Below, in pieces: positions 36,721 through 55,563 of a stretch of DNA of 64,000 nucleotides; positions within the stretch are counted from its first letter, which is position 1, and every line of letters starts with the position of its first letter. Source of the stretch: Escherichia phage EC128. The stretch lies in sequence record ON210139.1. One strand, 5' to 3'. The notes under the pieces were generated by a model, which searched no databases, was not told where the DNA came from, and was given only the letters and a program-made list of their open reading frames with translations. Made by a program: the position numbers and the translations under genes.

Positions 36721-36721
36721 A

Positions 36722-37500: not shown

Positions 37501-37503
37501 TTA

Positions 37504-37580
<77 letters not shown>

Positions 37581-38610: not shown

Positions 38611-38645
38611 GTTTACATCCCTGTTCTTCCATGGTACTATACAAC
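38611..38645 (+). promoter_or_regulatory. Early promoter (PeSL-like module with conserved leader)
   Basis: -35 GTTTACA, -10 TGGTACTAT, followed by the leader GGTACTATACAACTATCAACTAC also present at 53388 and 55527. Confidence 0.6.
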
Positions 38646-38683
38646 TATCAACTACTGATACAGAAAACAACTTGGAGAACGAA

Positions 38684-38947
38684 ATGGATAATTACGGCGA
38701 ACTGTTCAACTTCTTTATGAAATGTGTTTCAGAAGATTTCGGTCGTACAGTGAATGATATTAAAGTTATCGGTCCTGATCATCCGATGTTTGAAACTTAT
38801 GCGGTAATGGGCAATGAAGACGGTCAGTGGTATACTGTAAAGGTTGTGATTAACATGTTCACTGCTGAAAGTTATGTTAAACTGTCTTCTAAAGTTTACC
38901 ATGATAACGACGAAATCGCAGAAGAATATTTCAATAATATGAAATAA
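38684..38947 (+). CDS. Hypothetical protein
   Basis: ORF with GGAG RBS before ATG 38684 (track start 38672). Confidence 0.5.
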   Translation: MDNYGELFNFFMKCVSEDFGRTVNDIKVIGPDHPMFETYAVMGNEDGQWYTVKVVINMFTAESYVKLSSKVYHDNDEIAEEYFNNMK

Positions 38948-38985
38948 GTTTACATAGGCTCATGATTGAGATATTATGAGCCTAT
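38948..38985 (+). promoter_or_regulatory. Early promoter inside a stem-loop (PeSL-like)
   Basis: -35 GTTTACA and -10 TATTAT enclosed by the 9-bp inverted repeat TAGGCTCAT...ATGAGCCTA. Confidence 0.6.
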
Positions 38986-39003
38986 ACAAATGAGGAAAAC
39001 ATT

Positions 39004-39339
39004 ATGAAACGTAACTTTAGTAAAGCTTTTTGTAATAGAAATAATTATCCTGAAGAGCTTTTTGAATCTAAGGAATTTAAAGAGTTTAACGAACGTTCTC
39101 AAAACATGCCTGTACAATGGGTGTTAGATTATGCCAATCGTATCTTTGAAGGTGTGCGGGATATTTGTCCTGATGATGAAACTCCTTATTTTAAAAAGGC
39201 TTGGGAACTCGTCAATCAAGCATATATCAATGCTTCAGAATCTTATAAAGGTACTGACGATGATTTTACTTTATTGGCTATCAATGATGCCGTTATCGAG
39301 GCCATTGACGTCTTTATCGATGAGATAGACGAAGAATAA
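39004..39339 (+). CDS. Hypothetical acidic protein
   Basis: 111 aa ORF downstream of an early promoter. Confidence 0.5.
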   Translation: MKRNFSKAFCNRNNYPEELFESKEFKEFNERSQNMPVQWVLDYANRIFEGVRDICPDDETPYFKKAWELVNQAYINASESYKGTDDDFTLLAINDAVIEAIDVFIDEIDEE

Positions 39340-39370
39340 GTTTACAATCTATTAAAAACGTGATATTATC
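39340..39370 (+). promoter_or_regulatory. Early promoter
   Basis: -35 GTTTACA, -10 TGATATTAT at T4-early spacing. Confidence 0.5.
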
Positions 39371-39396
39371 TAATTGTATCAATCTAAGGAAATACT

Positions 39397-39990
39397 ATGA
39401 ACACACTGAAGAAAATTGTTGAGTTTATTCGCACTAAACTTGGTTCTGCTATGGCTAAAAATCTATCTGTTGAAGAACAGTATACTGCTGCAGCAGCAAA
39501 ACTACTTGATAAGATTAAAGATCTAAAAACTGCTTCTGTTAAATCTATTAATGAAGAAAAGCGTATTCGTGAACTTATTGTCGAAAAGAATAAGCAGGCC
39601 GAATCAAAAGAGCGTGAAATTCGCAAGCTTCTTTCGGAAGGTCAAGATGTAACAATGCATGCTAAACTTGGTTTACTATATCGTCGAACAGCTGAGCAGT
39701 TGACTACTAAAGCTGATGGTTATGCTGAAATGCGAATTGAAATCGCCAAGAAAGTAGTTGAGTTAGATGATGCTCGCCAAGAACTTGCAGTTAAATTGGA
39801 ATATATCCGTGAAACTCGCGCCGCGAATGCCCTCGGAATTAGTACTGCCGATGATGTAGTTGAAATTGCAGCACTGACTAAGGTTGATATTGAAGATACT
39901 CTTGCTCGAGTTGAAACCTTTAATGGTAATATTTCTGGGGTTGAAACTACCTCTGCCGATGTCCAGGAATATATTAATTCTCTGAAATAA
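39397..39990 (+). CDS. Hypothetical coiled-coil protein
   Basis: 197 aa ORF, heptad-rich, ends before a GGGGC-ttcg-GCCCC hairpin. Confidence 0.5.
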
Positions 39991-39999
39991 TGATAAGGG

Positions 40000-40016
40000 G
40001 CTTCGGCCCCTATTAC
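40000..40016 (+). terminator. Hairpin terminator
   Basis: AGGGGC-ttcg-GCCCCT immediately after the stop at 39990. Confidence 0.5.
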
Positions 40017-40031
40017 TTGGAGTAAATAGGA

Positions 40032-40637
40032 ATGAAAATGCAAAGTGATTTCAATTCAATGTTTGAAGAGTTCCAAAGACAGGTTGATGTTCCAGATCAA
40101 TTACTAAATGCTCTTAAACGTATGGCAGAAGGACGTAATTACTATTGGGGGTCTTCATACGAAACTGATGAAAGTCTTTCTGGATTTTATAAAGGTAAAA
40201 AGTCTTTAATACGTCCTGGAATACTCATTAAAAGTATTGAATCAATTCATTCATTGACGTGTGATTTTGATGTTGAATTTACTGATTTCATTTCTCCTGA
40301 ATGGACAGTTTGTTATTTAAATGACGATTATGATTATCTTGGCGTTTACAGTTTAAGTGACGCATGGTTTAAACGTAATTTACAAAAGTCAAATTTGTTC
40401 TATATTGATACTACGGTAAAATTTCAGGGAAAGAAATATTTCTTTACTCTTATAGTTGACTCTGAAACAAAATATGAAAATAAGCGTATTCTTAATAAAA
40501 AGAATATCTTAACTATCGTTGATGATCTTTTTGATAAATTCGTGGAAAATCCTAATTTTGAAAGCGATTTATTATTAGAAAAATTTGTTAAGGAATGTAG
40601 AGAATATGTCAAAGCCATCACTATACCTTCCAAGTAA
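40032..40637 (+). CDS. Hypothetical protein
   Basis: 201 aa ORF with RBS. Confidence 0.5.
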   Translation: MKMQSDFNSMFEEFQRQVDVPDQLLNALKRMAEGRNYYWGSSYETDESLSGFYKGKKSLIRPGILIKSIESIHSLTCDFDVEFTDFISPEWTVCYLNDDYDYLGVYSLSDAWFKRNLQKSNLFYIDTTVKFQGKKYFFTLIVDSETKYENKRILNKKNILTIVDDLFDKFVENPNFESDLLLEKFVKECREYVKAITIPSK

Positions 40638-40836
40638 ACCTGTGAAGTATGAACTAAAGCGTCAGCTAATTCCTACTGATGTATTAATAGGTCCTGTGAC
40701 AGCTATATCATTTGTAATTCTATTGGTTGTTGGAATGGTTATAGACTTTATGACTGATATTGAATCTGGCGTAATATTTTTGTTAGTATTAATTCTTCCA
40801 TTAGTAGTTCCATTTTTATTGGTACCTGTAAATTGA
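40606..40836 (+). CDS. Small membrane protein
   Basis: About 76 aa from ATG 40606 with hydrophobic segment VTAISFVILLVVGMVIDF...FLLVLILPLVVPFLLVPV; frame stays open after the TGA stop. Confidence 0.4.
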   Translation: MSKPSLYLPSKPVKYELKRQLIPTDVLIGPVTAISFVILLVVGMVIDFMTDIESGVIFLLVLILPLVVPFLLVPVN

Positions 40837-40979
40837 GTAGGATATTGGTATCAAGGAAGGCATTATCGTAAACGTGTACGTGAATGGAAAGCTCAGTGTA
40901 AAAAGATTAAAAAGGAACACCAGCTTAAATTAGATATGCATGAATTTAACGAAATTATGAAATTTGTTAAGGAATCACG

Positions 40980-41354
40980 ATGCAAAAGCCAAAACTAAAT
41001 AAAGTCAAATATTCTTTTTCTGAGTCATTTTTAATTTTTGCTGTGGCGTTGGCTGCAGCTCTTGCTGGTAGTCTTATTGGATTAATGATTGACTGTATTA
41101 TTTTAAACATCCGCAGTAATGTCAGCGGTATAGTAGATATAATAGAAGTTTGGAGTGAACTTCACTATACTAAAATTATTTCATTATTTTCATTCTTTGG
41201 TACCATGTTATATTTTCATTATGATAATTTTAAAATAAATTGGCAAAGAAAAAAAGATTACAAAATACAATTAAAAGAATATAATAGCTACATGTCTTAT
41301 ATTGAAAAAGAATCAATGGAAGAGTTTGTGAGTGATTGTAGGAAAATTAAATGA
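40980..41354 (+). CDS. Membrane protein
   Basis: 124 aa ORF with N-terminal hydrophobic helix FLIFAVALAAALAGSLIGLMI. Confidence 0.5.
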   Translation: MQKPKLNKVKYSFSESFLIFAVALAAALAGSLIGLMIDCIILNIRSNVSGIVDIIEVWSELHYTKIISLFSFFGTMLYFHYDNFKINWQRKKDYKIQLKEYNSYMSYIEKESMEEFVSDCRKIK

Positions 41355-41839
41355 TTTTAAAAACTCGCTGGTATGATTTAGATGATGGGGATGATGGCAT
41401 TTCAGTTGATAGAGTTGACTGGAATGGTTGTTCCGAAGATATGAAAAATTTGTTGATTAGGGAGTTTAGAATGGGATATCAAGCAGCTAAGCCATTTACT
41501 GTAACAGATGATAAGTTCGTATGTATTCAAAACGGTCGCGCTAAGTTAACGAACGCTGATTGGTTCACAGATAAAATTATGATTCTGTGGTATATTATTA
41601 GTCTTCCTGTGACATCATTCGTATTTTGCTTCTTTGGAGAAAGTCCAATGGACAAAACAGGAGATTGGGTTATTTTAACCATACTTGTTAATATTTTTAC
41701 AGCAGCAATATTATCTGGGATATGGTACACGTTCATTGAAATGCCATGGCGTTTACGCAGACAGCAAAAGATTTTTGATGAAAAGAAATATACTCAAAAT
41801 TTAAATAACTTTATCACTGAATGCAGGAAATTAAAATGA
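41351..41839 (+). CDS. Membrane protein
   Basis: 162 aa ORF with two central hydrophobic helices. Confidence 0.5.
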   Translation: MILKTRWYDLDDGDDGISVDRVDWNGCSEDMKNLLIREFRMGYQAAKPFTVTDDKFVCIQNGRAKLTNADWFTDKIMILWYIISLPVTSFVFCFFGESPMDKTGDWVILTILVNIFTAAILSGIWYTFIEMPWRLRRQQKIFDEKKYTQNLNNFITECRKLK

Positions 41840-42276
41840 AAACACTATCAGCTGGTATTATCTTTATGACAGAAGATAAAGATTTATTCATGGGACGGGT
41901 TACTGGTTCTCGTAAGCCTGGAATGATGGCACATCGCTGGGATATTCCAAAAGGCCGTGTAGAAAATTCTGATTTGAGCGCACTAGATGCAGCACGAAGA
42001 GAATGCTTAGAAGAGACCGGTTTTAGCAATTATAATCCAGACCTTCTAGAAGACCTAGGTGTATTTAAATATTCTAGTAATAAAGACTTACAGCTGTTTT
42101 ATTATACGATTCCAGTAGAGCATGAGATGTTTAGAAATTGCCATTGCGAGTCTTATTTTGAAAATAAAGATGGTGTTATGATTCCAGAGATGGATGCTTT
42201 TGCTCTTATTCCTCGTACTCAGTGGCAATATGTGATGGGTCCTTCACTTTACCGAATAATGAACAGCCTCTTTTAA
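41821..42276 (+). CDS. nudE: Nudix hydrolase NudE
   Basis: 151 aa ORF with Nudix box (RRECLEETGF); directly upstream of e as in T4. Confidence 0.85.
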   Translation: MQEIKMKTLSAGIIFMTEDKDLFMGRVTGSRKPGMMAHRWDIPKGRVENSDLSALDAARRECLEETGFSNYNPDLLEDLGVFKYSSNKDLQLFYYTIPVEHEMFRNCHCESYFENKDGVMIPEMDAFALIPRTQWQYVMGPSLYRIMNSLF

Positions 42277-42807
<531 letters not shown>

Positions 42808-42811
42808 AGTT

Positions 42812-42843
42812 GTTTACTTTCTCCTAGAATTGTGATAGTATAT
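42812..42843 (+). promoter_or_regulatory. Early promoter for denV
   Basis: -35 GTTTAC, -10 TAGTAT with upstream TG, in the 59-nt gap between e and denV. Confidence 0.55.
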
Positions 42844-42866
42844 TCACAGTTACTTGGAGGGATAAA

Positions 42867-43283
42867 ATGACTCGTATTAATTTGACTTTAGTATCTGAAC
42901 TTGCTGATCAACATTTAATCGCAGAATACCGTGAATTGCCGCGTGTTTTTGGTATAGTTCGTAAGCATGTGGCAAACGGTAAGCGCGTTAAAGATTTTAA
43001 AATATCTTCTAAATTTATTTTAGGTTCTGGTCATGTTACTTTCTTTTACGATAAGTTAGAATTTTTGCGAAAGCGTCAATCGGACATTATAACGGAATGC
43101 TTAAAACGCGGGTTCAGTATAAAAGATACTGAAGTTCCTGACATCAGCGATATTCCAGTAGAATGGAAAAATGATTATAATCCATGCAAATCAGCTATTA
43201 AGTTGAGTCAACAACGACTCGATGAAAAAATTTTAATGAAGCCACACTGGTATAAGTATTACGGCAAAAATATTTACATTTAA
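42867..43283 (+). CDS. denV: Endonuclease V (pyrimidine dimer DNA glycosylase)
   Basis: 138 aa [20 protein letters not shown]...; recognised as T4 endonuclease V. Confidence 0.95.
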
Positions 43284-43380
43284 ATAACATGGGAATAACC
43301 TGGACCTCATGATTCTGTGAGGGATTCCCGCCAACCTGTAATAAGGTCGAGCCCAAGTGCGGTAATGGGTAAATACAGAA

Positions 43381-43968
43381 ATGGACAATTCATGCGCCAT
43401 GGAATGGCCCAAACCTAGAGATAACAAAATGAGAACATTTTTAACTGGTCCTTATCTATCCCTGATGAATGCTTTTACACACCATTCTGATGCTAGAGTA
43501 GAAGAAATTTGTAAAAACGAATATATCCCGCCATTTGAAGACTTACTTAAACAGTATTGCACACTTCGACTAGACGGTGGACGTCAATCTGGTAAATCAA
43601 TTGCTGTGACTAACTTTGCTGCTAATTGGTTGTATGATGGCGGAACAGTTATTGTTCTTTCTAATACTTCAGCTTACGCTAAAATTTCTGCAAATAACAT
43701 TAAAAAGGAATTTTCGCGTTATTCTAATGATGATATACGTTTTCGTTTATTTACTGATTCTGTACGCAGTTTTATTGGTAATAAAGGAAGCAAGTTCAGA
43801 GGTTTATCGCTTTCGCGAATTTTGTATATAATTGATGAGCCTGTCAAATCTCCTGATATGGATAAGATTTATAGTGTCCATATTGACACTGTACACTGCT
43901 GCTGTAATATTAAATGTTGTATTGGTGGTATTACTCGTCCACAGTTTTTCGTAATCGGAATGCAATGA
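43381..43968 (+). CDS. P-loop NTPase-like protein with C-terminal cysteine cluster
   Basis: Walker A GGRQSGKS and Walker B-like LYIIDE; C-terminal HCCCNIKCC; real start may be the internal Met at 43429. Confidence 0.5.
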   Translation: MDNSCAMEWPKPRDNKMRTFLTGPYLSLMNAFTHHSDARVEEICKNEYIPPFEDLLKQYCTLRLDGGRQSGKSIAVTNFAANWLYDGGTVIVLSNTSAYAKISANNIKKEFSRYSNDDIRFRLFTDSVRSFIGNKGSKFRGLSLSRILYIIDEPVKSPDMDKIYSVHIDTVHCCCNIKCCIGGITRPQFFVIGMQ

Positions 43969-44294
43969 TGACAGACACTCAGCTTTTCGAATATCTTTAT
44001 TTTTCGCCAAAAACTATTAAAAATAAATTGGTGAATCATTTTGAAATTTTGGCAAATAACAACGTCTTGAGCGAATTTTATCCTAAGCAATACAAATTAC
44101 AAAAAGGCGTATTCAAAGGATGTAGAGTTTTATGTACTGCTCCTAATGCACGGCTAATGAATAAAATTCCATATTTTACCATGGAATTTATTGATGGGCC
44201 TTTTAAAGGACTAATCACACAGAGTTTAATGGCATATGATTCTGAGCCATTTTTAATTAAAGAACAATCTTGGATAAATTTATTTTCTAATTGA
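43965..44294 (+). CDS. Hypothetical protein
   Basis: ORF whose ATG overlaps the upstream stop (ATGATGA); track start 43914. Confidence 0.45.
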
Positions 44295-44301
44295 GGTTTA
44301 T

Positions 44302-44664
44302 ATGAAAGCATATCAAATTCTTGAAGGCACACATAAAGGTACTATTTATTTTGAAGATGGTATTCAAGCACGAATTATCGTTTCTAAAACCTTTAAAGAG
44401 GACTCTTTTGTAGACCCAGAAATTTTCTATGGTTTGCATGCCCGTGAAATTGAAATTGAGCAACAGCCTACAGTTAAAATTGAAGGTGGTCAACACCTGA
44501 ACGTTAACGTTCTGCGTCGTGAAACTCTGGAAGATGCAGTTAAGCATCCGGAAAAATATCCGCAGCTGACCATCCGTGTATCCGGTTATGCAGTTCGCTT
44601 TAACTCTCTGACTCCGGAACAGCAGCGCGACGTTATCGCTCGTACCTTTACCGAGAGTTTGTAA
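44302..44664 (+). CDS. Autonomous glycyl-radical cofactor (GrcA/YfiD-like)
   Basis: C-terminus [29 protein letters not shown] matches the glycyl-radical signature of GrcA and pyruvate formate-lyase C-termini. Confidence 0.85.
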
Positions 44665-44885
44665 TGGCAAAGATAATTATTGAAGGTTCTGAAGATGTGC
44701 TAAATGCTTTCGCCGAATGGTTTAGTAATTCAGGCGAACAGCAATTTAACGAAGCATGGAACATGGGTGATATTAATGGAATTTATCCTACTACAGAAAT
44801 TTCTGTTCAGGGATATGGCATTCATGAACCTATTCGTTTAGTTGAATACGATTTATGTACTGGTGAGGAAGTCAAATATGATTGA
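44664..44885 (+). CDS. Hypothetical protein
   Basis: 73 aa ORF with start/stop overlap with neighbours. Confidence 0.5.
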   Translation: MAKIIIEGSEDVLNAFAEWFSNSGEQQFNEAWNMGDINGIYPTTEISVQGYGIHEPIRLVEYDLCTGEEVKYD

Positions 44886-45144
44886 AGATATTAAAGGTTA
44901 TAAGCCACATACTAACGAAAAAATCGGTAAAGTAAATGCTATTAAAGACGCTGAAGTTCGTTTAGGACTTATCTTTGACGCTTTATACGATGAATTCTGG
45001 GAAGCACTAGATAATTGCGAAGACTACGAATTCGCAAAGAATTATGCTGAAAGCCTCGATCAGCTAACTATTGCTAAAACGAAACTCAAAGAAGCTAGTA
45101 TGTGGGCTTGTCGCGCGGTATTCCAACCAGAGGAAAAATATTAA
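44878..45144 (+). CDS. vs.4-like small protein (candidate Acb2 cyclic-oligonucleotide sponge)
   Basis: Fifth ORF counting from denV toward regB, the vs.4 slot in T4; about 88 aa from the ATG after a GAGGAA RBS; assignment by position and size only. Confidence 0.45.
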
Positions 45145-45422
45145 TGGCTCAATTAAGCGCAGGGTTTGGTTATGAGTATTATACTGCCCCTCGTCGTGTA
45201 TCTGTTGCTCCTAAGAAAATTCAAAGTCTTGATGATTTCCAGGAAGTAATTCGTAACGCTTTCCAGGACTATGCGCGTTATCTTAAAGAAGATTCACAGG
45301 ACTGTCTCGAAGAAGATGAAATTGCTTATTATGAGCAGCGTCTTGAACAGCTTAAAAACCTACATGAGGTTCGTGCAGAAGTTACAAAGTCTATGAATAA
45401 ATTGATTAGATTTAAAGAATAA
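45144..45422 (+). CDS. Hypothetical protein (vs.3 position)
   Basis: 92 aa from [13 protein letters not shown]; track ORF starts upstream at 45102. Confidence 0.5.
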
Positions 45423-45424
45423 TT

Positions 45425-45455
45425 GTTTACTTTTCCTCTTGACTGTGGTATAATT
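45425..45455 (+). promoter_or_regulatory. Early promoter for regB
   Basis: -35 GTTTAC, extended -10 TGGTATAAT. Confidence 0.65.
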
Positions 45456-45481
45456 TTTCTATCAGTTAAGAGGAGAATAAC

Positions 45482-45943
45482 ATGACTATCAACACAGAAG
45501 TTTTTATCCGTCGAAATAAGCTCCGTCGTCACTTTGAGTCGGAGTTTCGTCAAATTAACAATGAGATTCGTGAGGCATCAAAAGCAGCAGGAGTCTCATC
45601 GTTTCATCTAAAATATTCTCAACATCTTCTTGATCGTGCAATTCAACGGGAGATTGATGAGACATATGTTTTTGAATTATTCCACAAAATAAAAGACCAT
45701 GTTTTAGAAGTTAATGAATTCCTGAGTATGCCTCCGCGTCCTGACATTGACGAGGATTTTATTGATGGGGTTGAATATCGTCCTGGGCGTTTAGAAATCA
45801 CAGATGGAAATCTTTGGCTTGGATTTACAGTTTGTAAACCTAATGCGAAGTTCAAAGACCCGTCACTTCAATGTAGGATGGCCATTATCAACAGTCGTCG
45901 TTTACCAGGAAAGGCTTCTAAAGCAGTAATTAAAACTCAATGA
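45482..45943 (+). CDS. regB: Endoribonuclease RegB
   Basis: 153 aa ORF, GAGGAG RBS; recognised as T4 RegB by sequence and length. Confidence 0.9.
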   Translation: MTINTEVFIRRNKLRRHFESEFRQINNEIREASKAAGVSSFHLKYSQHLLDRAIQREIDETYVFELFHKIKDHVLEVNEFLSMPPRPDIDEDFIDGVEYRPGRLEITDGNLWLGFTVCKPNAKFKDPSLQCRMAIINSRRLPGKASKAVIKTQ

Positions 45944-45950
45944 GGTAAGC

Positions 45951-47693: not shown

Positions 47694-47863
47694 ATAATTT
47701 TGAGTTACAATATGAAGTGTTACGTGAACTTGATAATTTAATTGAACTCGCTGTTAATAAAGGTTTTGCCATTGGAATTGGTCAAAAAGATACTGATCAT
47801 TTAACTATGGAAATATTTAAGCAAAAACGAATTATTTTAAAACTTCTGGAAATTAATATATGA
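47690..47863 (+). CDS. Hypothetical small protein
   Basis: 57 aa ORF (below track cut-off) filling the gap, ATGA overlap with the next ORF. Confidence 0.35.
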   Translation: MNNFELQYEVLRELDNLIELAVNKGFAIGIGQKDTDHLTMEIFKQKRIILKLLEINI

Positions 47864-48045
47864 GTCTGAGCAAAGAACAAAAAGATAAATTGTTTGAGCT
47901 TATCCATGAACTTCTAGATGAGCATACAGAAGTAAACACCTTTTATGATGAATACGGCCCGCTATCTCCCGAACAGCAAGAAGAATTTGCTGACCGGTTT
48001 GATAAGAAAGAAAACGAATTAATAGCTTATGTGAATACGCTTTAA
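47860..48045 (+). CDS. Hypothetical acidic protein
   Basis: 61 aa ORF. Confidence 0.4.
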   Translation: MSLSKEQKDKLFELIHELLDEHTEVNTFYDEYGPLSPEQQEEFADRFDKKENELIAYVNTL

Positions 48046-48054
48046 GAAGGTGAT

Positions 48055-48636
48055 ATGGCGAGTTTAATTTTTACTTATGCGGCAATGAATGCTGGAAAAT
48101 CTGCTTCTCTTTTGACTGCTGCACATAATTATAAAGAACGCGGAATGAGTGTATTAGTTCTTAAGCCTGCTATTGATACTCGCGATTCTGTCTGTGAAGT
48201 CGTTTCTCGCATTGGAATTAAGCAGGAAGCGAATATTATTACGGATGATATGGATATTTTTGAGTTCTATAAATGGGCTGAAGCACAAAAAGATATTCAT
48301 TGTGTATTTGTAGATGAGGCCCAGTTTTTAAAAACTGAACAGGTGCATCAATTAAGCCGAATTGTTGATACATATAATGTTCCTGTTATGGCTTATGGGC
48401 TAAGGACTGATTTCGCTGGAAAATTATTTGAAGGTTCTAAAGAACTTTTAGCGATTGCAGATAAACTTATTGAACTAAAAGCAGTTTGTCATTGCGGCAA
48501 AAAAGCGATTATGACAGCTCGATTAATGGAAGATGGAACACCAGTTAAAGAAGGTAATCAAATCTGTATTGGTGATGAAATTTATGTTTCTTTGTGTAGA
48601 AAACATTGGAATGAATTAACTAAAAAGCTCGGTTAG
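48055..48636 (+). CDS. tk: Thymidine kinase
   Basis: 193 aa ORF with P-loop AAMNAGKSASLL and C-terminal CHCGKK...C zinc ribbon typical of type II thymidine kinases. Confidence 0.93.
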   Translation: MASLIFTYAAMNAGKSASLLTAAHNYKERGMSVLVLKPAIDTRDSVCEVVSRIGIKQEANIITDDMDIFEFYKWAEAQKDIHCVFVDEAQFLKTEQVHQLSRIVDTYNVPVMAYGLRTDFAGKLFEGSKELLAIADKLIELKAVCHCGKKAIMTARLMEDGTPVKEGNQICIGDEIYVSLCRKHWNELTKKLG

Positions 48637-48645
48637 TGCAAAAGT

Positions 48646-48653
48646 TATAAATA
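48646..48653 (+). promoter_or_regulatory. Late promoter (TATAAATA)
   Basis: TATAAATA upstream of the 48679 ORF and rI. Confidence 0.5.
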
Positions 48654-48678
48654 GGTTTATCTAACTAAAGGGGTATAT

Positions 48679-48891
48679 ATGCTACAATTAACTGAAAAGC
48701 AACTTCGCAATCTTACTGTTCTTCAATTAGATGAAATTCGTAGGGAAGTTGGAAATATCATTTCAGCTTTGCGTCGAGAAGTATCACTCAACCAATCTCC
48801 GGCAGACTATACTAGATTGCGAAATTTTGAAAAATACCTTGATAAAGTTAAGGCCGTGCACCGGCACAAAGTAAATACAGGACAAAAATGA
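48679..48891 (+). CDS. Hypothetical protein (rI.-1 position)
   Basis: 70 aa ORF between tk and rI. Confidence 0.5.
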
Positions 48892-48903
48892 TAGGAGGCC
48901 TTT

Positions 48904-49197
48904 ATGGCCTTAAAAGCAACGGCACTATTTGCCATGCTAGGATTAGCGTTTGCTTTATCTCCACCAATTGAAGCGAATGTCGATCCTCATTTTGATAAAT
49001 TTATGGAATCTGGTATTAGACACGTTTATATGCTTTTTGAAAACAAAAGCGTAGAATCATCTGAACAGTTCTATAGTTTTATGCGAACGACTTATAAAAA
49101 TGACCCGTGCTCTTCCGATTTTGAATGTATAGAGCGAGGCGCGGAGATGGCACAATCATACGCTAGAATTATGAACATTAAATTGGAGACTGAATGA
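48904..49197 (+). CDS. rI: Lysis inhibition regulator RI (periplasmic antiholin)
   Basis: 97 aa ORF with N-terminal signal-anchor MALKATALFAMLGLAFALS; T4 position and length. Confidence 0.85.
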   Translation: MALKATALFAMLGLAFALSPPIEANVDPHFDKFMESGIRHVYMLFENKSVESSEQFYSFMRTTYKNDPCSSDFECIERGAEMAQSYARIMNIKLETE

Positions 49198-49580
49198 AAT
49201 TCAGCGACTTTTCACAAAGTGGAAAACCTTCAAAGGCAGATGAATACTTAGGTTTATTAATGGCTGCACAAGCTTATTTTCATTCTGCGCATTTTGAAAC
49301 TAAAAGTTATGCTAGACACAAAGCATACGATTTTATTTTCTCTGAGTTGCCAGATTTGATTGATAAATTTGGTGAGCAATATTTGGGGTATTCTGGTAGA
49401 AAATACACGCCTTCTATTCCAGATGCCAGTAAACTTCCTACCGACACAATTAAAATGATTGATCGCATACTAGACCAATCTAACAGCATTTACAAAGAAA
49501 TGCCTCCAGCCATTCAAAGCACGATAGATGATATTACTGGAATGTTTTACCAGAGCAAATATCTTCTTTCCCTCGAATAA
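49194..49580 (+). CDS. rI.1: Hypothetical protein rI.1
   Basis: 128 aa ORF overlapping the rI stop. Confidence 0.6.
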
Positions 49581-49584
49581 CATT

Positions 49585-49608
49585 AGTCTCCTTCGGGAGA
49601 CTTTTTTC
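49585..49608 (+). terminator. Rho-independent terminator after rI.1
   Basis: AGTCTCC-ttcg-GGAGACT hairpin followed by TTTTTTC. Confidence 0.75.
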
Positions 49609-49617
49609 ATTTTACCG

Positions 49618-49650
49618 GTTTACTTTCCATTTGAGCTGTGATACTATACA
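49618..49650 (+). promoter_or_regulatory. Early promoter
   Basis: -35 GTTTAC, -10 TGATACTAT. Confidence 0.6.
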
Positions 49651-49675
49651 ACCATCGGATAAAGAGGAGAACATC

Positions 49676-49864
49676 ATGAAAATTGAAGCACTTAATCAAG
49701 AAGGAAATATCTACGTCATCATTAACGGCGATTTTTTCGTCGACATGGATGAAGTTACCAGTGAAGAACTTGAAGAACTTCTTAAGAAACGTTATGATAT
49801 GTGTGATGAAGCTGCAACTCATATGGCGTGTGCAATATTCTCTCTTTCATATGTGGTGGAATAA
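49676..49864 (+). CDS. Hypothetical acidic protein
   Basis: About 62 aa from [10 protein letters not shown] after an AAGAGGAG RBS; track start 49631. Confidence 0.45.
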
Positions 49865-50067
49865 TGATTAGTATCGAACAAGCAGATAAAATTAAAGAAT
49901 TGGTAGCTTTAATTCGCAAAGCAGATGAGGAACTTAGTGACTTTGCTTGGTTTTCGGCAGGCATTGCAAATAAAGGTATTGAAGAATTTGAAGCTAAAGT
50001 TGATAATGCTGTAGAAGCTTTAGATATGTTTCTTGATGAAATTATCGATCACAATACGAGAGTTTAA
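49864..50067 (+). CDS. Hypothetical acidic protein
   Basis: 67 aa ORF. Confidence 0.45.
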   Translation: MISIEQADKIKELVALIRKADEELSDFAWFSAGIANKGIEEFEAKVDNAVEALDMFLDEIIDHNTRV

Positions 50068-50069
50068 GT

Positions 50070-50264
50070 ATGCTGACACACGAACAGTTTGAAAAAATCA
50101 TTAAATTAGCACGTGATGTTGAAATAGATTCATATCAATTAGCAGTTGAGCATTGTGAAGGATATTCATACGAAGGTATAGCAGCAGCTAAAAGAGATTT
50201 GGATGAATCTAAAGCTAAGTTAGTTCAATATCTTGAAATGATTAGGTGGAATAATGAAAACTGA
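50070..50264 (+). CDS. Hypothetical protein
   Basis: 64 aa ORF. Confidence 0.45.
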   Translation: MLTHEQFEKIIKLARDVEIDSYQLAVEHCEGYSYEGIAAAKRDLDESKAKLVQYLEMIRWNNEN

Positions 50265-50427
50265 AAAGCAGATGTTTTTAATGAAGCTAATTGAAGAATA
50301 TGCTAATGCAGTTTCTGACTATGAGTGTTCTTCTCGTGAAAGGGGTATAGCTTTCGCAAAGGAAGAAATGAAAATCATGGTTGATGCTCATACAAAGCTT
50401 CAGAATTTTATCGAAAACGTCATTTAA
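50254..50427 (+). CDS. Hypothetical small protein
   Basis: 57 aa ORF (below track cut-off). Confidence 0.35.
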   Translation: MKTEKQMFLMKLIEEYANAVSDYECSSRERGIAFAKEEMKIMVDAHTKLQNFIENVI

Positions 50428-50429
50428 TG

Positions 50430-50472
50430 GTTTACAAGTTGGCAAGGTTATGGTATAGTAATCTTGTCAACT
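50430..50472 (+). promoter_or_regulatory. Early promoter inside a stem-loop (PeSL-like)
   Basis: -35 GTTTACA, -10 TGGTATAGT flanked by the imperfect inverted repeat AGTTGGCAAG...CTTGTCAACT. Confidence 0.6.
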
Positions 50473-50487
50473 GCCAAGGAGAAGAGA

Positions 50488-50592
50488 ATGAAAGTTTTGT
50501 TTGTTGTGTATGTGATGATTCAATATAATTACCCAATGTTTACTTATAATCTGGTGAACAACATTATTGATATTATTCAAAGGAGTATGTAA
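50488..50592 (+). CDS. Short hydrophobic peptide
   Basis: 34-codon ORF MKVLFVVYVMIQYNYPMF... after a GAGAAGAGA RBS. Confidence 0.25.
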   Translation: MKVLFVVYVMIQYNYPMFTYNLVNNIIDIIQRSM

Positions 50593-50777
50593 TGACAAGT
50601 GAGCAGGCTTTTAAATTAAGAGAATTAATTGAGACGTATAGTAAAGCTGTTCATACATCAACAATTATTGATGAATCAGCTTTCTCCGGACATGCTAACA
50701 AGATTAAATACAAAACTCTTATGGAAGAAGCTAAAGTAAATCTTGATTCTTATATTGAAACTTTAATTGGTAAATAA
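50592..50777 (+). CDS. Hypothetical protein
   Basis: 61 aa ORF with AAGGAG RBS. Confidence 0.45.
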   Translation: MTSEQAFKLRELIETYSKAVHTSTIIDESAFSGHANKIKYKTLMEEAKVNLDSYIETLIGK

Positions 50778-50778
50778 T

Positions 50779-50928
50779 ATGAAAGCTGTAATTGAAACAA
50801 CTGATTTGTTCGGTGACCTAGTTATCGAAAAACGCGGTAATGTATACGTTCTGACGCAGGAAGACGATAGTATTACTATTCTTCCTATGGAACTGGCTGC
50901 GATTTTATCTTATGCTCCCTCAAACTAA
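50779..50928 (+). CDS. Hypothetical small protein
   Basis: 49 aa ORF (below track cut-off). Confidence 0.3.
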   Translation: MKAVIETTDLFGDLVIEKRGNVYVLTQEDDSITILPMELAAILSYAPSN

Positions 50929-51307
50929 TATTACAGGTGACCTCCAAGTTCGTTTTTATCGTGGCCTTTACGGCGGTAATATTGAAACTGAATTTATGTG
51001 TCTTTCTATCAACAATTGGGCAACATTCGTTGCCAAGGTGAAAGAATTCTTAGAATCTGAAACAGTCGAAACACCCGAAAAGGCTAAACTTCAATGGGCT
51101 AAAGATCGCGGTGCTAACATTATTAATCCAGTAGCTGCAAACTATACTACGACTTTGGATGTCAAGACTTCTTATGAAGATGGCGATGTCGTACTTGTTC
51201 GCCAAAATGATGATTCTCGAGCACATATTGTCACATTTACCAAAGACGAAGCTATTGCGCTAAAGACTTATCTTGATTCTGTCATTCCAACTATGATTTC
51301 AAAGTGA
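50912..51307 (+). CDS. Hypothetical protein
   Basis: 131 aa ORF; start uncertain, no clear RBS. Confidence 0.4.
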   Translation: MLPQTNITGDLQVRFYRGLYGGNIETEFMCLSINNWATFVAKVKEFLESETVETPEKAKLQWAKDRGANIINPVAANYTTTLDVKTSYEDGDVVLVRQNDDSRAHIVTFTKDEAIALKTYLDSVIPTMISK

Positions 51308-51313
51308 GGAAAT

Positions 51314-51841
51314 ATGTTTATTTCAAGTGGAAGTGGTTTAATTCGTGTTGAATTTAAAAATGACATCTTTCTTATTCAAGGAGATGATATTATTAAAATG
51401 AGTTATGACGAAATCAAGAAAATTTGTCATGCTCTTGAAAGTCATGGAAAAGTGAACGCTGTTATTGATATTGGCGATTTATGGGTGACACTTTATGAAG
51501 TATCCGAAGGATTTAACATTGAAGATGAAAATAACATTTTAGCTATTGATAAAAGAAGTGATTTGTTTGATGTATTAAAAGTTTATGAACAGTCAAATGG
51601 CGGAAGAAAAGCTGCATTGATTTATCAAAAACCACATTCATGTGGAACTGCTTCAATCATTTCAAATATTGAAGATGAAGATGAAGTTGATACTTATATG
51701 TGTGTTTTAAAAGCTGGTGGTGACCGTCATCCGGATTTTATTTCTATTCGTCAAAACAATGGAGAAATTTCATTATCAAAATCAGAAGCTGAAGCTATGA
51801 TTAAGTATTTAACAACTGTTACGCCTTCAATGAAAGGATAA
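51314..51841 (+). CDS. Hypothetical protein
   Basis: 175 aa ORF with GAGGA RBS. Confidence 0.5.
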   Translation: MFISSGSGLIRVEFKNDIFLIQGDDIIKMSYDEIKKICHALESHGKVNAVIDIGDLWVTLYEVSEGFNIEDENNILAIDKRSDLFDVLKVYEQSNGGRKAALIYQKPHSCGTASIISNIEDEDEVDTYMCVLKAGGDRHPDFISIRQNNGEISLSKSEAEAMIKYLTTVTPSMKG

Positions 51842-51843
51842 TT

Positions 51844-52305
51844 ATGATTATTAATGAAAACTCTTGGCACTATAAATTATTCAAATTGTTTAACGATGAA
51901 TGGCAACGACCTAAGACACTATGCGCATATTTTTGGTCTATTGCTATTCCTACATTTTTCGTTTCTATTTTTGGATGTGCTATACTCGTAGGGCTAACAA
52001 TTATTTGCGCAGAAAGCCTACAGCGTTGGCTTATTTTTGGTAGTTTATGGACTTTGCTTCCATCAGCATTTATACTTGCGCTTTTGGTTGTTTTACTTAT
52101 TATCGGTTCATTTGTTATTCCTGCACATTTGCGTGAAAAATATAAAGATTATAAATGGAAAAAGGATTATGCTTTACACGTAGAAAATATTGATAGGGCG
52201 TATAAAGGTTTACCTCCTATTCAACCAAAGAAATCGATTATCGTTGAATTTTTAAAAGCTCGTAAAGCTAAAGTATGTCCTGTTATTGAATATAAGGCTG
52301 AATGA
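51844..52305 (+). CDS. Integral membrane protein (two to three TM helices)
   Basis: 153 aa ORF with hydrophobic helices FWSIAIPTFFVSIFGCAILVGLTIICA and LWTLLPSAFILALLVVLLIIGSFVIP. Confidence 0.55.
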   Translation: MIINENSWHYKLFKLFNDEWQRPKTLCAYFWSIAIPTFFVSIFGCAILVGLTIICAESLQRWLIFGSLWTLLPSAFILALLVVLLIIGSFVIPAHLREKYKDYKWKKDYALHVENIDRAYKGLPPIQPKKSIIVEFLKARKAKVCPVIEYKAE

Positions 52306-53315
52306 TGAAAACAGTAATGAAAAGTTATTTTGGCAGTCATCTTTATGGAACTTCTACTCCAGAATCTGATGTAGATTTTAAAGAAATCTTTGTTCCTCCT
52401 GCTCGCGATATTCTTATCGGAAGTGTCAAAGAGCACATGAGTAAAAACACTAACAACACATCATCTAAAAACACTAAAGATGATATTGACCATGAACTAT
52501 ACAGTCTTAAATATTTCTTTAAATTAGCAGCAGATGGTGAAACTGTAGCATTGGATATGCTTCACACTCCACCTGAACTAGTGGTTAAATCTGATTTGCC
52601 TGATGTGTGGAAGTTTATTCAAGACAACCGTTCTCGTTTTTATACGACTAACATGAAATCATATTTAGGATATGTCCGCAAGCAAGCTTCTAAATACGGT
52701 GTCAAGGGTTCTCGTTTGGCTGCATTACGTGATGTATTGAAAGTAGTTAATCAAATCCCTGAGCAATGGATTGATTACCAAGAAGATGGTTCTATTAAGC
52801 AGCGTCGCACTAAAGTTGAAGATATTAAGCATCGTCTTCCAGAAAACGAATTCTGTGAATGGGTGTTCCATAATCATGAGAAAACAGGCCCACAAACGTT
52901 CTACACTGTGTTGGGTCGTAAATATCAGACAACTCTTTCTCTTATTGAGCTTAAGCAGTCACTGAACAAATTAGATGCTGAATACGGTGAACGTGCTCGT
53001 AAGGCCGAAGCCAATGAAGGTATTGACTGGAAAGCTCTGAGCCATGCCTGCCGTGGTGGACTTCAACTATTGGAAATTTACAAAACTGGCGACTTGATTT
53101 ATCCACTCCAAGATGCTCCATTTATTCTCGACGTGAAGTTGGGTAAACATCCATTTAAAACAGTTCAAGAGTTTTTGGAAGATGTGGTCGATCAAGTAGA
53201 AGCAGCATCTACTGAAGCTTCTAAGAACGGTATGCCTAAAACAGTAGACATGAGTTTCTGGGATGACTTCCTTGAGAAGGTCTATCTTGAAAACCACCGA
53301 AGTTATTATAAATGA
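52302..53315 (+). CDS. Nucleotidyltransferase-fold protein (Pol-beta-like NTase)
   Basis: N-terminal YFGSHLYGTSTPESDVDFKEIFV fits the NTase G[GS]-x9-13-D-x-[DE] motif; a candidate third acidic residue in ETVALDMLH. Confidence 0.6.
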   Translation: MMKTVMKSYFGSHLYGTSTPESDVDFKEIFVPPARDILIGSVKEHMSKNTNNTSSKNTKDDIDHELYSLKYFFKLAADGETVALDMLHTPPELVVKSDLPDVWKFIQDNRSRFYTTNMKSYLGYVRKQASKYGVKGSRLAALRDVLKVVNQIPEQWIDYQEDGSIKQRRTKVEDIKHRLPENEFCEWVFHNHEKTGPQTFYTVLGRKYQTTLSLIELKQSLNKLDAEYGERARKAEANEGIDWKALSHACRGGLQLLEIYKTGDLIYPLQDAPFILDVKLGKHPFKTVQEFLEDVVDQVEAASTEASKNGMPKTVDMSFWDDFLEKVYLENHRSYYK

Positions 53316-53317
53316 TA

Positions 53318-53343
53318 GGGAGCCTTCGGGCTCCCTTTTTTTA
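53318..53343 (+). terminator. Rho-independent terminator
   Basis: GGGAGCC-ttcg-GGCTCCC hairpin followed by TTTTTTT. Confidence 0.8.
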
Positions 53344-53366
53344 TTTCAAAAATTTTTCACAAAACG

Positions 53367-53400
53367 GTTTACAAGCATAAAGCTTTATGGTACTATACAA
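53367..53400 (+). promoter_or_regulatory. Early promoter (PeSL-like module with conserved leader)
   Basis: -35 GTTTACA, -10 TGGTACTAT, and the leader GGTACTATACAACTATCAACTACTGATACAGA shared with the module at 38611. Confidence 0.6.
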
Positions 53401-53433
53401 CTATCAACTACTGATACAGATTTGGAGAATAAA

Positions 53434-54402
53434 ATGAAAACTGTAACTATCAATAAGGGTATCTACTTCGGTAAAGAAATCTCTGGAACTTTTGAGCTCT
53501 TAGGTGAATGGTTCCCAGATAATGCTCCGGTAGATGCACAAGGAGATGGTAAAGTTTTTGTTGAAATTGACGGTAAGCGTCGCGGTGTTTGGGTTTACAA
53601 ATCAGACATTTCATATGATGGTGTAAAAGTTGAAGAAGTTAAAGAATCATATGAAGATATGAAAACCCGCATTAATAAAAGATTTAATGTTATGGGAATG
53701 ATGACGAATGGTATTATTAACGGAAACATTCGTTCATTAATTATCTCTGGTGCGGCGGGTATTGGTAAAACGTATTCTTTAGATAAAGCTTTGAATAAAG
53801 CAAATGATAATGGATACATTGAATATAAAAGCATTAACGGTAAAATCTCCGGTATCGGTCTTTATGAACAACTTTGGAATAATCGTGAAGAGAATTCTGT
53901 CCTTTTGATTGATGATGTGGATGTTTTCTCTGATATGGACATTCTTAATCTTCTGAAAGCTGCTCTGGACACTGGAGAGACCCGTAAAGTCTGCTGGAGC
54001 ACTGCATCTTCTTACTTAGAAGAAAAAGGCATTGAGCGTGAGTTTGAATTTAAAGGAACGATTGTTTTTATCACAAACGTTGACATTGACCGCGAATTAG
54101 ACCGTGGTACTAAACTTGCTCCACATTTACAAGCATTAGTGTCCCGCTCAGTTTATTTAGATTTGGGTGTTCACACTAATGAAGAAATTATGGTCAGGGT
54201 TGAAGATGTTATTCTTTCAACTGACATGATGCAAAAGCGCGGTCTTTCTGATGAAGAAACTTATAAAGCATTATCATGGATGAAAGTCAATGTTAATCGT
54301 TTACGCAATGTTTCACTGCGTACTGCTCTTTATCTTGCTGACTTTATTATGACCGACAAAAACGGTTGGGAAGAAATCGCTGAAACAGTATTATTAAAAT
54401 GA
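53434..54402 (+). CDS. AAA+ ATPase
   Basis: Start at MKTVTINKG after a GGAG RBS (track ORF starts upstream); Walker A GAAGIGKT, Walker B VLLIDDVD, sensor-like FITNV. Confidence 0.65.
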   Translation: MKTVTINKGIYFGKEISGTFELLGEWFPDNAPVDAQGDGKVFVEIDGKRRGVWVYKSDISYDGVKVEEVKESYEDMKTRINKRFNVMGMMTNGIINGNIRSLIISGAAGIGKTYSLDKALNKANDNGYIEYKSINGKISGIGLYEQLWNNREENSVLLIDDVDVFSDMDILNLLKAALDTGETRKVCWSTASSYLEEKGIEREFEFKGTIVFITNVDIDRELDRGTKLAPHLQALVSRSVYLDLGVHTNEEIMVRVEDVILSTDMMQKRGLSDEETYKALSWMKVNVNRLRNVSLRTALYLADFIMTDKNGWEEIAETVLLK

Positions 54403-55118
54403 AAAAATATTTTACTATCTATAAAACTGAAATATTAAATTTAAAGACAGGTATTAAGAAATACTATTATGGTCGACATATAACTAATAATATCAATGAT
54501 TCGTATGTTGGTAGTGGAAATTATATAGAACGTGTAAAAGTGTCAAATGACCACATATTATCAAAAACGGTTTTAGAAGTTTTTGATAATTATGATAAAA
54601 TGGTACAAGCTGAAATATTATATATCATGGCAGGTAAATTGAAATATGGGAAAAACTGTGTTAACCTGTCATACGGGGGTGAAGGAGGAAAGGTTGCAGA
54701 TGAAACTAGGATAAAATGCAAAAAGCATTCTATAAATTTATGGAAAAATCCTAATCATATACAGCATATGAAGAAAAAGATGAAAGAGGTCACATCCACG
54801 CCGGAAGCTAAATTAAACACTTCAATAAAAACTTCGCAACGATATAAGGACCCGGTTTTTGTTAGAAAAGTTAGTAATATTATTAAAAAGAAACTAAGCA
54901 ATCCTGTAGTAAAAGAAAAGCATATTAATGGAATTAAAGCTGCAAAGCGTTCTCATTTAACTATATGGCAGTATGAAGATGAATTATTCGAGCTCTGGAA
55001 AGAAACTAAATGTGGATGGAGAAAATTTACAAAGGAAGCTATAAAACACGGATATCCAAATGAACCGTATCGTAGTATGGTATCAACTTTTCAGAAAAGA
55101 CATTTAGAAGAATCCTAA
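54399..55118 (+). CDS. Seg-like GIY-YIG homing endonuclease
   Basis: N-terminus YFTIYKTEILNLKTGIKKYYYGRH plus VGSG...NLSYGGEGG aligns with the SegB ORF at 36835 (YTYKIT..IYIGVHS, MGSG..NLKLGGEGG). Confidence 0.75.
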   Translation: MKKYFTIYKTEILNLKTGIKKYYYGRHITNNINDSYVGSGNYIERVKVSNDHILSKTVLEVFDNYDKMVQAEILYIMAGKLKYGKNCVNLSYGGEGGKVADETRIKCKKHSINLWKNPNHIQHMKKKMKEVTSTPEAKLNTSIKTSQRYKDPVFVRKVSNIIKKKLSNPVVKEKHINGIKAAKRSHLTIWQYEDELFELWKETKCGWRKFTKEAIKHGYPNEPYRSMVSTFQKRHLEES

Positions 55119-55200
55119 GACAAAAAGGCAGTTCAGAAATAGATTATATGGACTGCCATTAAAAAGATGACTAGAATTAAACTGGTGAATGGAGGTAGTG

Positions 55201-55503
55201 ATGTTATACTCAAAGGCTCGTGAAATTTACGAAACTAAGATTAAAGAAGCTGTATTTCAGTTCGCAACGACAATGCGATGGACAAATGATTGGGAGTATT
55301 CAAAAAATCATAAGAAGCCCATGGTGACAAGAAAGGCTCATATGTTAGTGTTAATAGACCGTGAGCAGATTAAAGCCCGAGAAGCCCTCCAGAATCATAA
55401 AAAGGCTGCCTTTGAATGGTTTATGGATAACACTGCTCCTGAGACTAAGAAAGCGGTAAGCGCGTGGTTCAGTGGAAAAAATTGTGAAAGAAGTTTCTTT
55501 TAG
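55201..55503 (+). CDS. Hypothetical protein
   Basis: About 100 aa from the ATG after a GGAGG RBS (track start 55189). Confidence 0.45.
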   Translation: MLYSKAREIYETKIKEAVFQFATTMRWTNDWEYSKNHKKPMVTRKAHMLVLIDREQIKAREALQNHKKAAFEWFMDNTAPETKKAVSAWFSGKNCERSFF

Positions 55504-55505
55504 TG

Positions 55506-55540
55506 GTTTACAAGACCGTTCCTCTGTGGTACTATACAAC
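55506..55540 (+). promoter_or_regulatory. Early promoter (PeSL-like module with conserved leader)
   Basis: -35 GTTTACA, -10 TGGTACTAT and leader GGTACTATACAACTATCAACTAC. Confidence 0.6.
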
Positions 55541-55563
55541 TATCAACTACGGAGGAACAGAAA

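Follow-up and report, generated by a model that had tools for sequence, protein, structure and literature searches.

The window analysed here, a stretch of 64,000 nt of Escherichia phage EC128 (sequence record ON210139.1), carries three exact copies of a 24-nt block, TGGTACTATACAACTATCAACTAC, all on the + strand (38632-38655, 53388-53411 and 55527-55550; sites A, B and C). From the anatomy of this block, its orthologues in phage T4 and its comparison with other early promoters, we propose that one sub-family of T4-type, sigma-70-dependent early promoters has this block as its invariant core, with a probability of roughly 0.87. Such a feature is already known twice over, as the core of T4 early promoters and as part of cassettes of the PeSL (promoter-early stem-loop) type.

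Three identical blocks with the geometry of early promoters

The window is assigned by its sequence to Tequatrovirus (T4/T6/RB32-like): it is 96-99% identical to Tequatrovirus genomes (T6, RB32, RB18, AR1), and its + strand corresponds to the early-gene strand of T4. A preliminary description of this DNA had noted identical promoter-linked blocks at three places, and they are indeed exact copies. The block consists of a 23-mer, GGTACTATACAACTATCAACTAC (exact + strand matches at 38633-38655, 53389-53411 and 55528-55550), and the preceding T. Allowing up to three mismatches, the 23-mer had no match in the window beyond these three copies, and none in shuffled sequence (n=100). According to the T4 map, the open reading frames (ORFs) located downstream are e.8, nrdC.10 and nrdC.8, three different non-essential genes, the ATG codons of which lie at 38684, 53434 and 55564, as previously given. 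The AAA+ ATPase that had been announced at 53434 is the nrdC.10 orthologue, of which the matches to AAA/STAND P-loop families in Pfam are all sub-threshold. The elements of the three sites are as follows (UP, upstream promoter; UTR, untranslated region; SD, Shine-Dalgarno sequence).

Site A, e.8 promoter
38451-38474, + strand: terminator-like stem-loop (10 bp, 7 G-C, T-rich tail) upstream of the e.8 promoter
38583-38610, + strand: UP-element-like A/T-rich region, AACTTTTTAAAAATTTTTTCACAAAACT
38611-38617, + strand: -35 element, GTTTACA
38618-38631, + strand: gene-specific spacer, TCCCTGTTCTTCCA, partly complementary to the SD region UGGAGAAC
38632-38655, + strand: block copy A (TGn, 38632-38634; TACTAT, 38635-38640; ACAACT, 38641-38646; predicted +1, 38647)
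38647-38683, + strand: predicted e.8 5'UTR, 37 nt (SD GGAG, 38674-38677; ATG, 38684)
38684-38947, + strand: e.8 orthologue, 87 aa (no Pfam match)

Site B, nrdC.10 promoter
53317-53343, + strand: intrinsic-terminator-like stem-loop, AGGGAGCCTTCGGGCTCCCT (53317-53336), and T-run, after nrdC.11
53339-53366, + strand: UP-element-like A/T-rich region
53367-53373, + strand: -35 element, GTTTACA
53374-53387, + strand: spacer, AGCATAAAGCTTTA, with the perfect palindrome TAAAGCTTTA
53388-53411, + strand: block copy B (-10, 53391-53396; predicted +1, 53403; T4 orthologue, "early promoter 54.4")
53403-53433, + strand: predicted nrdC.10 5'UTR, 31 nt, unstructured
53424-53434, + strand: GGAGAATAAAA, the T4 RegB/S1 consensus
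53434-54402, + strand: nrdC.10 orthologue, 322 aa (weak P-loop/AAA/STAND matches below Pfam cut-offs)

Site C, nrdC.8 promoter
55506-55512, + strand: -35 element, GTTTACA, 3 nt past the nrdC.9 stop codon
55513-55526, + strand: spacer, AGACCGTTCCTCTG, complementary to the nrdC.8 SD region
55518-55558, + strand: stem-loop enclosing the -10 box; arms GUUCCUCUGUGGU (5', 55518-55530) and ACUACGGAGGAAC (3', 55546-55558, carrying the SD)
55527-55550, + strand: block copy C (-10, 55530-55535; predicted +1, 55542; -35 and -10 of the T4 orthologue annotated in U76612)
55564-56091, + strand: nrdC.8 orthologue, 175 aa (no Pfam match)

At each site GTTTACA, the -35 element of T4-type early promoters (GTTTAC(A/T)), starts 14 nt upstream of the block (38611, 53367 and 55506 being its first positions), and TTTACA is separated from TACTAT by 17 bp, within the 17 +/- 1 bp of early promoters. 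The block itself comprises an extended -10 (TGG) followed by the -10 hexamer TACTAT, in agreement with the TGn and TAnnnT of early promoters, the discriminator ACAACT, an A that is the predicted +1, and TCAACTAC at +2 to +9. The UP-like A/T region (about -40 to -60) matches the T4 consensus aAAAaaaTTTcA.AAA at sites A and B, and is weaker at site C (AAAATTGTGAAAGAAGTTTCTTTTAGT), where it lies within the end of nrdC.9. We infer the start site from the occurrence of an A 7 nt past the -10 hexamer in 26/35 T4 early promoters, and from the end of the promoter feature of a T4 entry (X75802, see below). Transcription from there would include only AUCAACUAC, i.e., about 9 of the 24 nt, so that the term "leader" used for the block in the preliminary description, which placed it after the promoter, is a misnomer: extending from the extended -10 to +9, it is mostly promoter.

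Copies A (38.6 kb) and B (53.4 kb) share an identical stretch of 34 nt that runs on through TGATACAGA; they also have the -35 element in common and 21/27 positions of the A/T region, while their 14-nt spacers are unrelated (4/14). Copy C has in common with the two others only the -35 element and the block.

Orthologues in T4 and related phages

In T4 (NC_000866) the exact 23-mer occurs upstream of both e.8 and nrdC.8, and a copy with two mismatches precedes nrdC.10. An exact 18-mer, TACTATACAACTATCAAC, also precedes imm.1 and motA and follows denB, and frd.3 has a near copy in front of it. Several of these T4 sequences have long been annotated. U76612 indicates a terminator (the counterpart of the site B stem-loop), a -35 and a -10 at nrdC.10, as "early promoter 54.4", and it also indicates a -35 and a -10 at nrdC.8. 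X75802, which covers the copy downstream of denB, reports GTTTACA as the -35, TACTAT as the -10, and a promoter feature the last base of which is the A 7 nt past the hexamer. The orthology is thus apparent in the matching genes and sequences of NC_000866 and in the promoter features of U76612 and X75802.

We found no essential difference between these T4 promoters (motA, imm.1, e.8, nrdC.10, nrdC.8 and downstream of denB) and those of the window: the same exact 18- to 23-mer occurs in a common architecture (A/T-rich UP, GTTTACA, 17 bp, TGn, TACTAT), on the same strand and with the same genes. The variations are limited to a few substitutions in the spacer and SD, and to the nrdC.10 copy, in which the window retains an ACT that T4 lacks (CAACTACTGATACAG versus CAACTGATACGG).

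The block is widespread in related genomes. A 33-mer query was found at 3566 places in 573 phage records, typically seven per genome, and beyond Tequatrovirus the phage collection returned only partial matches to it. With about seven occurrences per genome in over 500 records of Tequatrovirus, the finding is real but ordinary. At nrdC.10, orthologous promoters are retained in phages with only 60-78% identity in the nrdC.10 protein; their form, GTTTACA...TG(A/T)TA(C/T)TAT......ATC(A/G)AA, indicates that a start region of the cATCaAA type is conserved well outside the genus.

At three nrdC.10 loci of more distant T4-like phages (L033, L036 and L037), the -35 hexamer sits, 60-100 nt before the ATG, within a G/C-rich stem and the spacer contains a T-run (e.g., cgCCCAGGCAgtttacatTGCCTGGGcttttctgtataat), a compact terminator-in-promoter arrangement.

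Two points in the T4 record look, from the sequence, like annotation issues. Around position 167019 of NC_000866, the block downstream of denB is followed by an SD, GGAGAATAAA, and by ATGAAAATCGCT, with no matching coding sequence in RefSeq. The annotated start of ndd.4 (166764; region 166749-166764) is just 8 nt past the predicted +1, and an in-frame ATG with a GGAGG SD occurs five codons downstream.

Comparison with the consensus of T4 early promoters

Aligned on the -10 hexamer, 35 early promoters of T4 yielded the consensus aAAAaaaTTTcA.AAA.TtGTTTACAt-(variable spacer)-TGTGgTAtTATA.accTATCAAcTA, in which TA...T is invariant and the G at -14 occurs in 33/35. After the exclusion of the eight family members, the 27 others still gave the majority sequence T-A-T-C-A-A-C-T-A at -1 to +8, identical to the corresponding part of the block, TATCAACTA, and in this comparison the discriminator ACAACT was specific to the block sub-family. 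The -1 to +8 consensus agrees with the remark that alignments of T4 early promoters contain consensus regions besides the UP, -35, TGn and -10 elements (Hinton review, PMC2988021).

This long consensus, common to T4 early promoters, raises the question of whether the three copies are alike by chance or through an ordinary likeness of such promoters. We regard this possibility as practically negligible and have discarded it, on account of the shuffled sequences mentioned above and of the match levels elsewhere: 7-20 of 23 positions in the 27 non-family T4 promoters, and 11-19 of 24 in the other early promoters of the window, versus 24/24 in the three copies. The latter range includes three diverged copies, which had been pointed out at 34873, 35238 and 49640 and which are real:

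34872-34895, + strand: ipI promoter, 13/24 (-10 starts at 34875)
35238-35261, + strand: trna.4 promoter, TGATACTATTACCCTATCAACTAC, 19/24 (-10 starts at 35241)
49639-49662, + strand: promoter after rI.-1, upstream of the mobD.5 orthologue, 18/24 (-10 starts at 49642)
49585-49602: terminator preceding the copy at 49639-49662

The remaining early promoters of the window match the block at 11-15/24 positions, so that the three copies are clearly more conserved than generic early promoters.

Post-transcriptional readings of the transcribed part

The preliminary description had considered that the block could be a translational operator or a processing site for an RNase such as RegB. A reading of this kind holds that the transcribed part is a shared post-transcriptional signal (RegB/S1 context, operator or translational enhancer) co-regulating the three mRNAs. 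Some observations suit it. The +1 to +8 sequence, AUCAACUA, is the majority sequence also in unrelated T4 early promoters, which makes a function of the initial bases plausible, and the leaders (22-37 nt), being G-poor and unstructured, would suit the binding of S1 or of the 30S subunit. All three leaders end in GGAG, and RegB-type motifs occur downstream of each block, at 53424-53434 (GGAGAATAAAA, the exact consensus), at 38674-38684, where the SD, GGAGAACGAAA, is close to the RegB/S1 consensus, and at 55551-55561. RegB cuts GG/AG in the target GGAGRAYARAA (T4 consensus, GGAGAAUAAAA; Durand et al. 2006, PMC1702504), and the GGAG of T4 nrdC.8 is a mapped site with moderate RegB cleavage in vivo (PMC1702504).

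These targets lie 0-18 nt downstream of the block, which itself contains no GGA. Published deletion and chimera work showed that RegB requires no specific information 5' of GGAG, the determinant being GGAG and the seven A-rich nt located 3' of it; no other position scored as conserved in the 48-nt windows analysed (PMC1702504), and SELEX yielded GGAG only (PMC3014915). With the determinants at and 3' of GGAG, the block has no support as a RegB site or operator, and we rejected these roles on the missing GGA and on these deletion, SELEX and alignment data. RegB very probably acts on these three mRNAs, but downstream of the block and independently of it.

A structured leader was likewise rejected. 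RNAs starting at the predicted +1 have minimum free energies (MFE) of -1.2 (site A, z +0.8), -3.3 (site B) and 0 kcal/mol (site C), no better than shuffles, and in the region 33000-59000 Rfam detected eight tRNAs only, with no cis-regulatory RNA at the leaders. Together with the small size of the transcribed part and the variable distance between block and SD (0, 12 and 18 nt at the three sites), these results make a shared post-transcriptional signal highly improbable.

Recombination and exchange of cassettes

The proposal that the block provides recombination homology for cassette exchange is supported: insertion and replacement junctions of relatives fall inside the cassette, mainly at site B, and the PeSL model (Arbiol et al. 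2010, PMC2839356; Comeau et al. 2014, PMC4122927) has already put the idea forward. In this model crossovers occur between the -10 and the ATG, including in the PST/T4 pair, with promoters of the form TTTACW-N17-TAYWAT (PMC2839356, PMC4122927). The window shares with PeSLs the composite of A/T-rich region, early promoter, stem-loop, SD and ATG, the repetition of this unit in hyperplastic regions ahead of small non-essential genes (here e.8, nrdC.10 and nrdC.8, usually non-essential), and indels or replacements in close relatives, the junctions of which fall either in the A/T-rich region or somewhere from the -10 to the ATG. TTTACW-N17-TAYWAT also fits. The stem-loop lies upstream of the promoter at sites A and B, and overlaps the -10 at site C, where the stem has 13 bp. 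In the PeSL-type cassette of site B, the stem-loop and T-run at 53317-53343 supply the stem-loop component. The stem-loop at 38451-38474 would do so at site A; it is about 137 nt upstream of the -35, making this a loose cassette. Whereas the PeSLs of RB49/phi1 have near-perfect TTGACA/TATAAT boxes and G/C-rich stems, those of the window correspond to a T-even version.

The junctions found in relatives are as follows. At site B they occur in SG1, T2, L006, L008 and H110-113. Salmonella phage SG1 has a two-ORF insert (a 49-aa ORF and a DUF4031 ORF) after the resident promoter; its left junction is inside the block after TACTATACAACTATCAA, homology resumes at TTGGAGAATAAAATG, and nrdC.10 is preceded by a second promoter, which comes with the insert and belongs to another sub-family. 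In T2, duplicated UP/-35 segments flank an additional ORF. In L006 and L008 a 99% identical nrdC.10 has another promoter and another gene upstream of it, and the junction lies at the SD. Window position 53407, within the block, is where homology stops in four records. Site A is represented by a deletion in BYEP01 and site C by a patch in L077, both described below.

In Escherichia phage BYEP01 (L085, OR757453.1) the e.8 promoter is deleted from the UP region to +4, leaving the junction ...ccctaaaact|aactactgatacag...; e.8 can be expressed there by read-through only, indicating that its promoter is dispensable. In ime09 a gap of about 680 bp separates the two matched pieces of site A.

In L077 (IMGVR_UViG_2974787500_000001), TATTATTACCCT stands in for TACTATACAACT over 12 nt of the block, about 40 nt upstream of nrdC.8; the flanks are identical, and from the sequence this looks like a short-patch gene conversion from the TATTACCCTATCAAC promoter sub-family.

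Homology between distant loci also goes beyond the block. The site B spacer is identical at the T4 nrdC.10 (~146851) and frd.3 (~55360) promoters, about 91 kb apart, and these two promoters are identical over about 60 nt, showing that entire promoter modules are common to distant loci. The spacers of T4 imm.1, ndd.4, e.8 and nrdC.8 form one related family, and imm.1, nrdC.10 and the copy downstream of denB have their entire 5'UTR in common, up to ATGAAAA. Judging from such patterns, the cassettes look like mosaics of modules.

The window contains a further case. The gene e (42313-42807) is directly followed by denV (42867-43283), where T4 has ipIII and ipII in between (region 42313-43283). The promoter at 42812-42841 is that of T4 ipIII and is joined, within the 5'UTR, to a denV SD and ATG; the junction lies between the -10 and the SD. 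On this comparison we interpret the e-denV arrangement as an in-window loss or exchange of a cassette at promoter modules.

These data invite the stronger reading that the block is primarily a recombination site (homology for cassette exchange or mini-circle formation), its promoter look being secondary. The insertion, replacement and converted-patch junctions inside or beside the block are in its favour, as are the fact that the copies are direct repeats on one strand, and the reports that short homology suffices in T4 recombination and that PeSL mini-circles form in RB49/phi1 (PMC2839356). Yet each position of the block can be assigned to a given promoter element, and in T4 the orthologues carry early-promoter annotations. 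The junctions are spread across the cassette (UP/-35 in T2, +5 in SG1, SD in L006/L008), as expected of general homologous recombination and not of a single site. To our knowledge, no specific recombinase acts on the block. A synthetic nrdC.11-block-nrdC.8 query, representing a B x C recombinant, had its junction covered in none of 677 records. We therefore consider a primary recombination site to be very unlikely.

The partial matches of EH2 and ECp13, examined as candidate B-C deletions, proved to be the normal nrdC.8 promoter.

Proposed mechanism

Returning to the early-promoter core, we propose that the host RNA polymerase would read the A/T tract (through the C-terminal domain of its alpha subunit, alpha-CTD), the GTTTACA -35, the 17-bp spacing and the TGn plus TACTAT. 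It would then open the ACAACT discriminator and start at the A found 7 nt past the hexamer, so that AUCAACUAC would begin a short, G-poor and unstructured leader ending in the GGAG SD. Two forces could keep the copies identical. The first would be selection on a presumably very strong promoter and initiation module, the -1 to +8 part of which equals the consensus of unrelated promoters. The second would be ectopic homologous recombination with short-patch conversion between the dispersed cassettes, which would make these cassettes boundaries of gene insertion, loss and swapping, in a modular shuffling of the PeSL type.

Five points weigh against this proposal. First, the +1 is inferred from the spacing, the consensus and one GenBank annotation. 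Second, selection and gene conversion, the relative weights of which would have to be estimated, are not quantitatively separable with these data. Third, the 14-nt spacers are fully diverged beside perfectly identical flanks, which simple duplication does not explain; an extra assumption is needed, namely that the spacer is free or tuned to something else. Fourth, none of the 677 records contained a natural B x C recombinant. Fifth, sites A and C are mostly syntenic, at least 80% of the query being covered in 512/534 and 498/675 records, respectively, so that cassette exchange is documented mainly at site B.

As a discovery the block has little weight, since these are textbook T4 early promoters with a published role in shuffling. 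Its value is for annotation: in any genome of Tequatrovirus it points to early transcription units and to likely boundaries of cassettes, and the window supplies clean examples of in-cassette junctions.

Stem-loops enclosing the -10 box

The variable spacer separating the -35 from the -10 is often complementary to a segment just past the -10 or to the SD. In 14/35 T4 promoters, the spacer forms a better duplex with its own downstream segment (-12 to -22 kcal/mol) than with any other of the 35 tried. We extended this analysis to 157 unique promoters taken from T4, from the window and from IMG/VR loci (the IMG/VR sample comprising just a handful of Tequatrovirus genomes), represented after clustering at 70% identity by 62 sequences. 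Duplexes of -14 kcal/mol or below were formed by 23.6% of cognate and 1.9% of non-cognate pairs among the 157 promoters, and by 19.4% versus 0.95% (about 20-fold) among the 62 representatives. The mismatches in cognate inverted repeats were eight of G.U type, none of A.C type and one other (background, 61:65:295), and the sense-strand duplexes were stabler than the antisense ones; both features point to a structure in the sense RNA. Among the 20 strongest hairpins, the SD is covered in seven and the interval -6 to +4 in 13. Only nine of the 62 representatives use the helix register i+j=1, and the others use other registers, so that one fixed register for counting covariation was discarded.

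A DNA cruciform or a site for a dimeric protein was also considered for these inverted repeats and found unlikely, given that the arms differ from one promoter to another and given the G.U bias and the sense stability.

In the window, RNA reading through from upstream had a significant fold at 7 of the 11 early promoters folded (z -2.6 to -5.1), with the -10 in or beside the loop:

34851-34920: ipI promoter hairpin, z -3.6
35217-35284: trna.4 promoter hairpin, z -2.6
38948-39013: e.7 promoter hairpin, z -5.1
42812-42876: denV promoter hairpin, z -3.2, SD in the 3' arm
45425-45491: regB promoter hairpin, z -4.6, SD in the 3' arm
50430-50500: mobD.2 promoter hairpin, z -3.8
55506-55580: nrdC.8 promoter hairpin, z -4.9, SD in the 3' arm

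Among the three block sites, only C has such a hairpin; the fold is weak at A (-13.7 kcal/mol, z -1.3) and there is none at B. The 13-bp hairpin of site C (-20.9 kcal/mol in read-through RNA; 0/200 shuffles equally stable) can form solely in RNA that reads through from upstream. This class of structure is already known, as Arbiol et al. listed a stem-loop structure ("SLS overlapping the -10 box", with G-T pairs drawn) as a common subclass of RB49/phi1 PeSLs, which they read as an attenuator (PMC2839356).

The predicted hairpins of site C, regB and denV resemble those of the T4 genes e, soc, 49 and I-TevI (PMC3014915), in that the SD is paired in the read-through transcript and free in the transcript of the proximal promoter. 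They differ in that the T4 cases involve late promoters and a delay of expression, whereas those of the window involve an early internal promoter; sites A and B have no significant hairpin of this kind.

By analogy, we suggest as a tentative and rather doubtful possibility that the 14-nt spacer, the sole free part of the cassette, is tuned in many T-even early promoters to pair with its own +1 region or SD, and that the hairpin acts as a translational insulator. Read-through RNA would fold with the -10 box in the loop and, at nrdC.8, regB and denV, with the SD hidden, while transcripts of the proximal promoter would start inside the loop and be open to ribosomes and RegB. Translation and RegB inactivation would then be promoter-specific, the protein being made only during early-promoter firing, and the conserved ACUAC (+5 to +9) would gain a second role as the partner of the extended -10 GUGGU. 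We did not find this reading for early promoters in the accessible literature. If true, it would help to explain how T4 confines some proteins to the first minutes of infection although read-through transcription continues, as well as the resistance of some GGAG sites to RegB.

Other features of the window

Between nrdC.10 and nrdC.9 the window has a 239-aa ORF (54399-55118) that is not present in T4. Its start overlaps the nrdC.10 stop, it has no Pfam match, and it is annotated in RB32, T6 and AR1 as a seg-like, HNH or "intron-like" homing endonuclease. Finally, the eight tRNA genes of the region 36230-37577 (the T4 tRNA region) are interrupted by a 221-aa ORF (36835-37500), at the place where T4 has the segB homing endonuclease.

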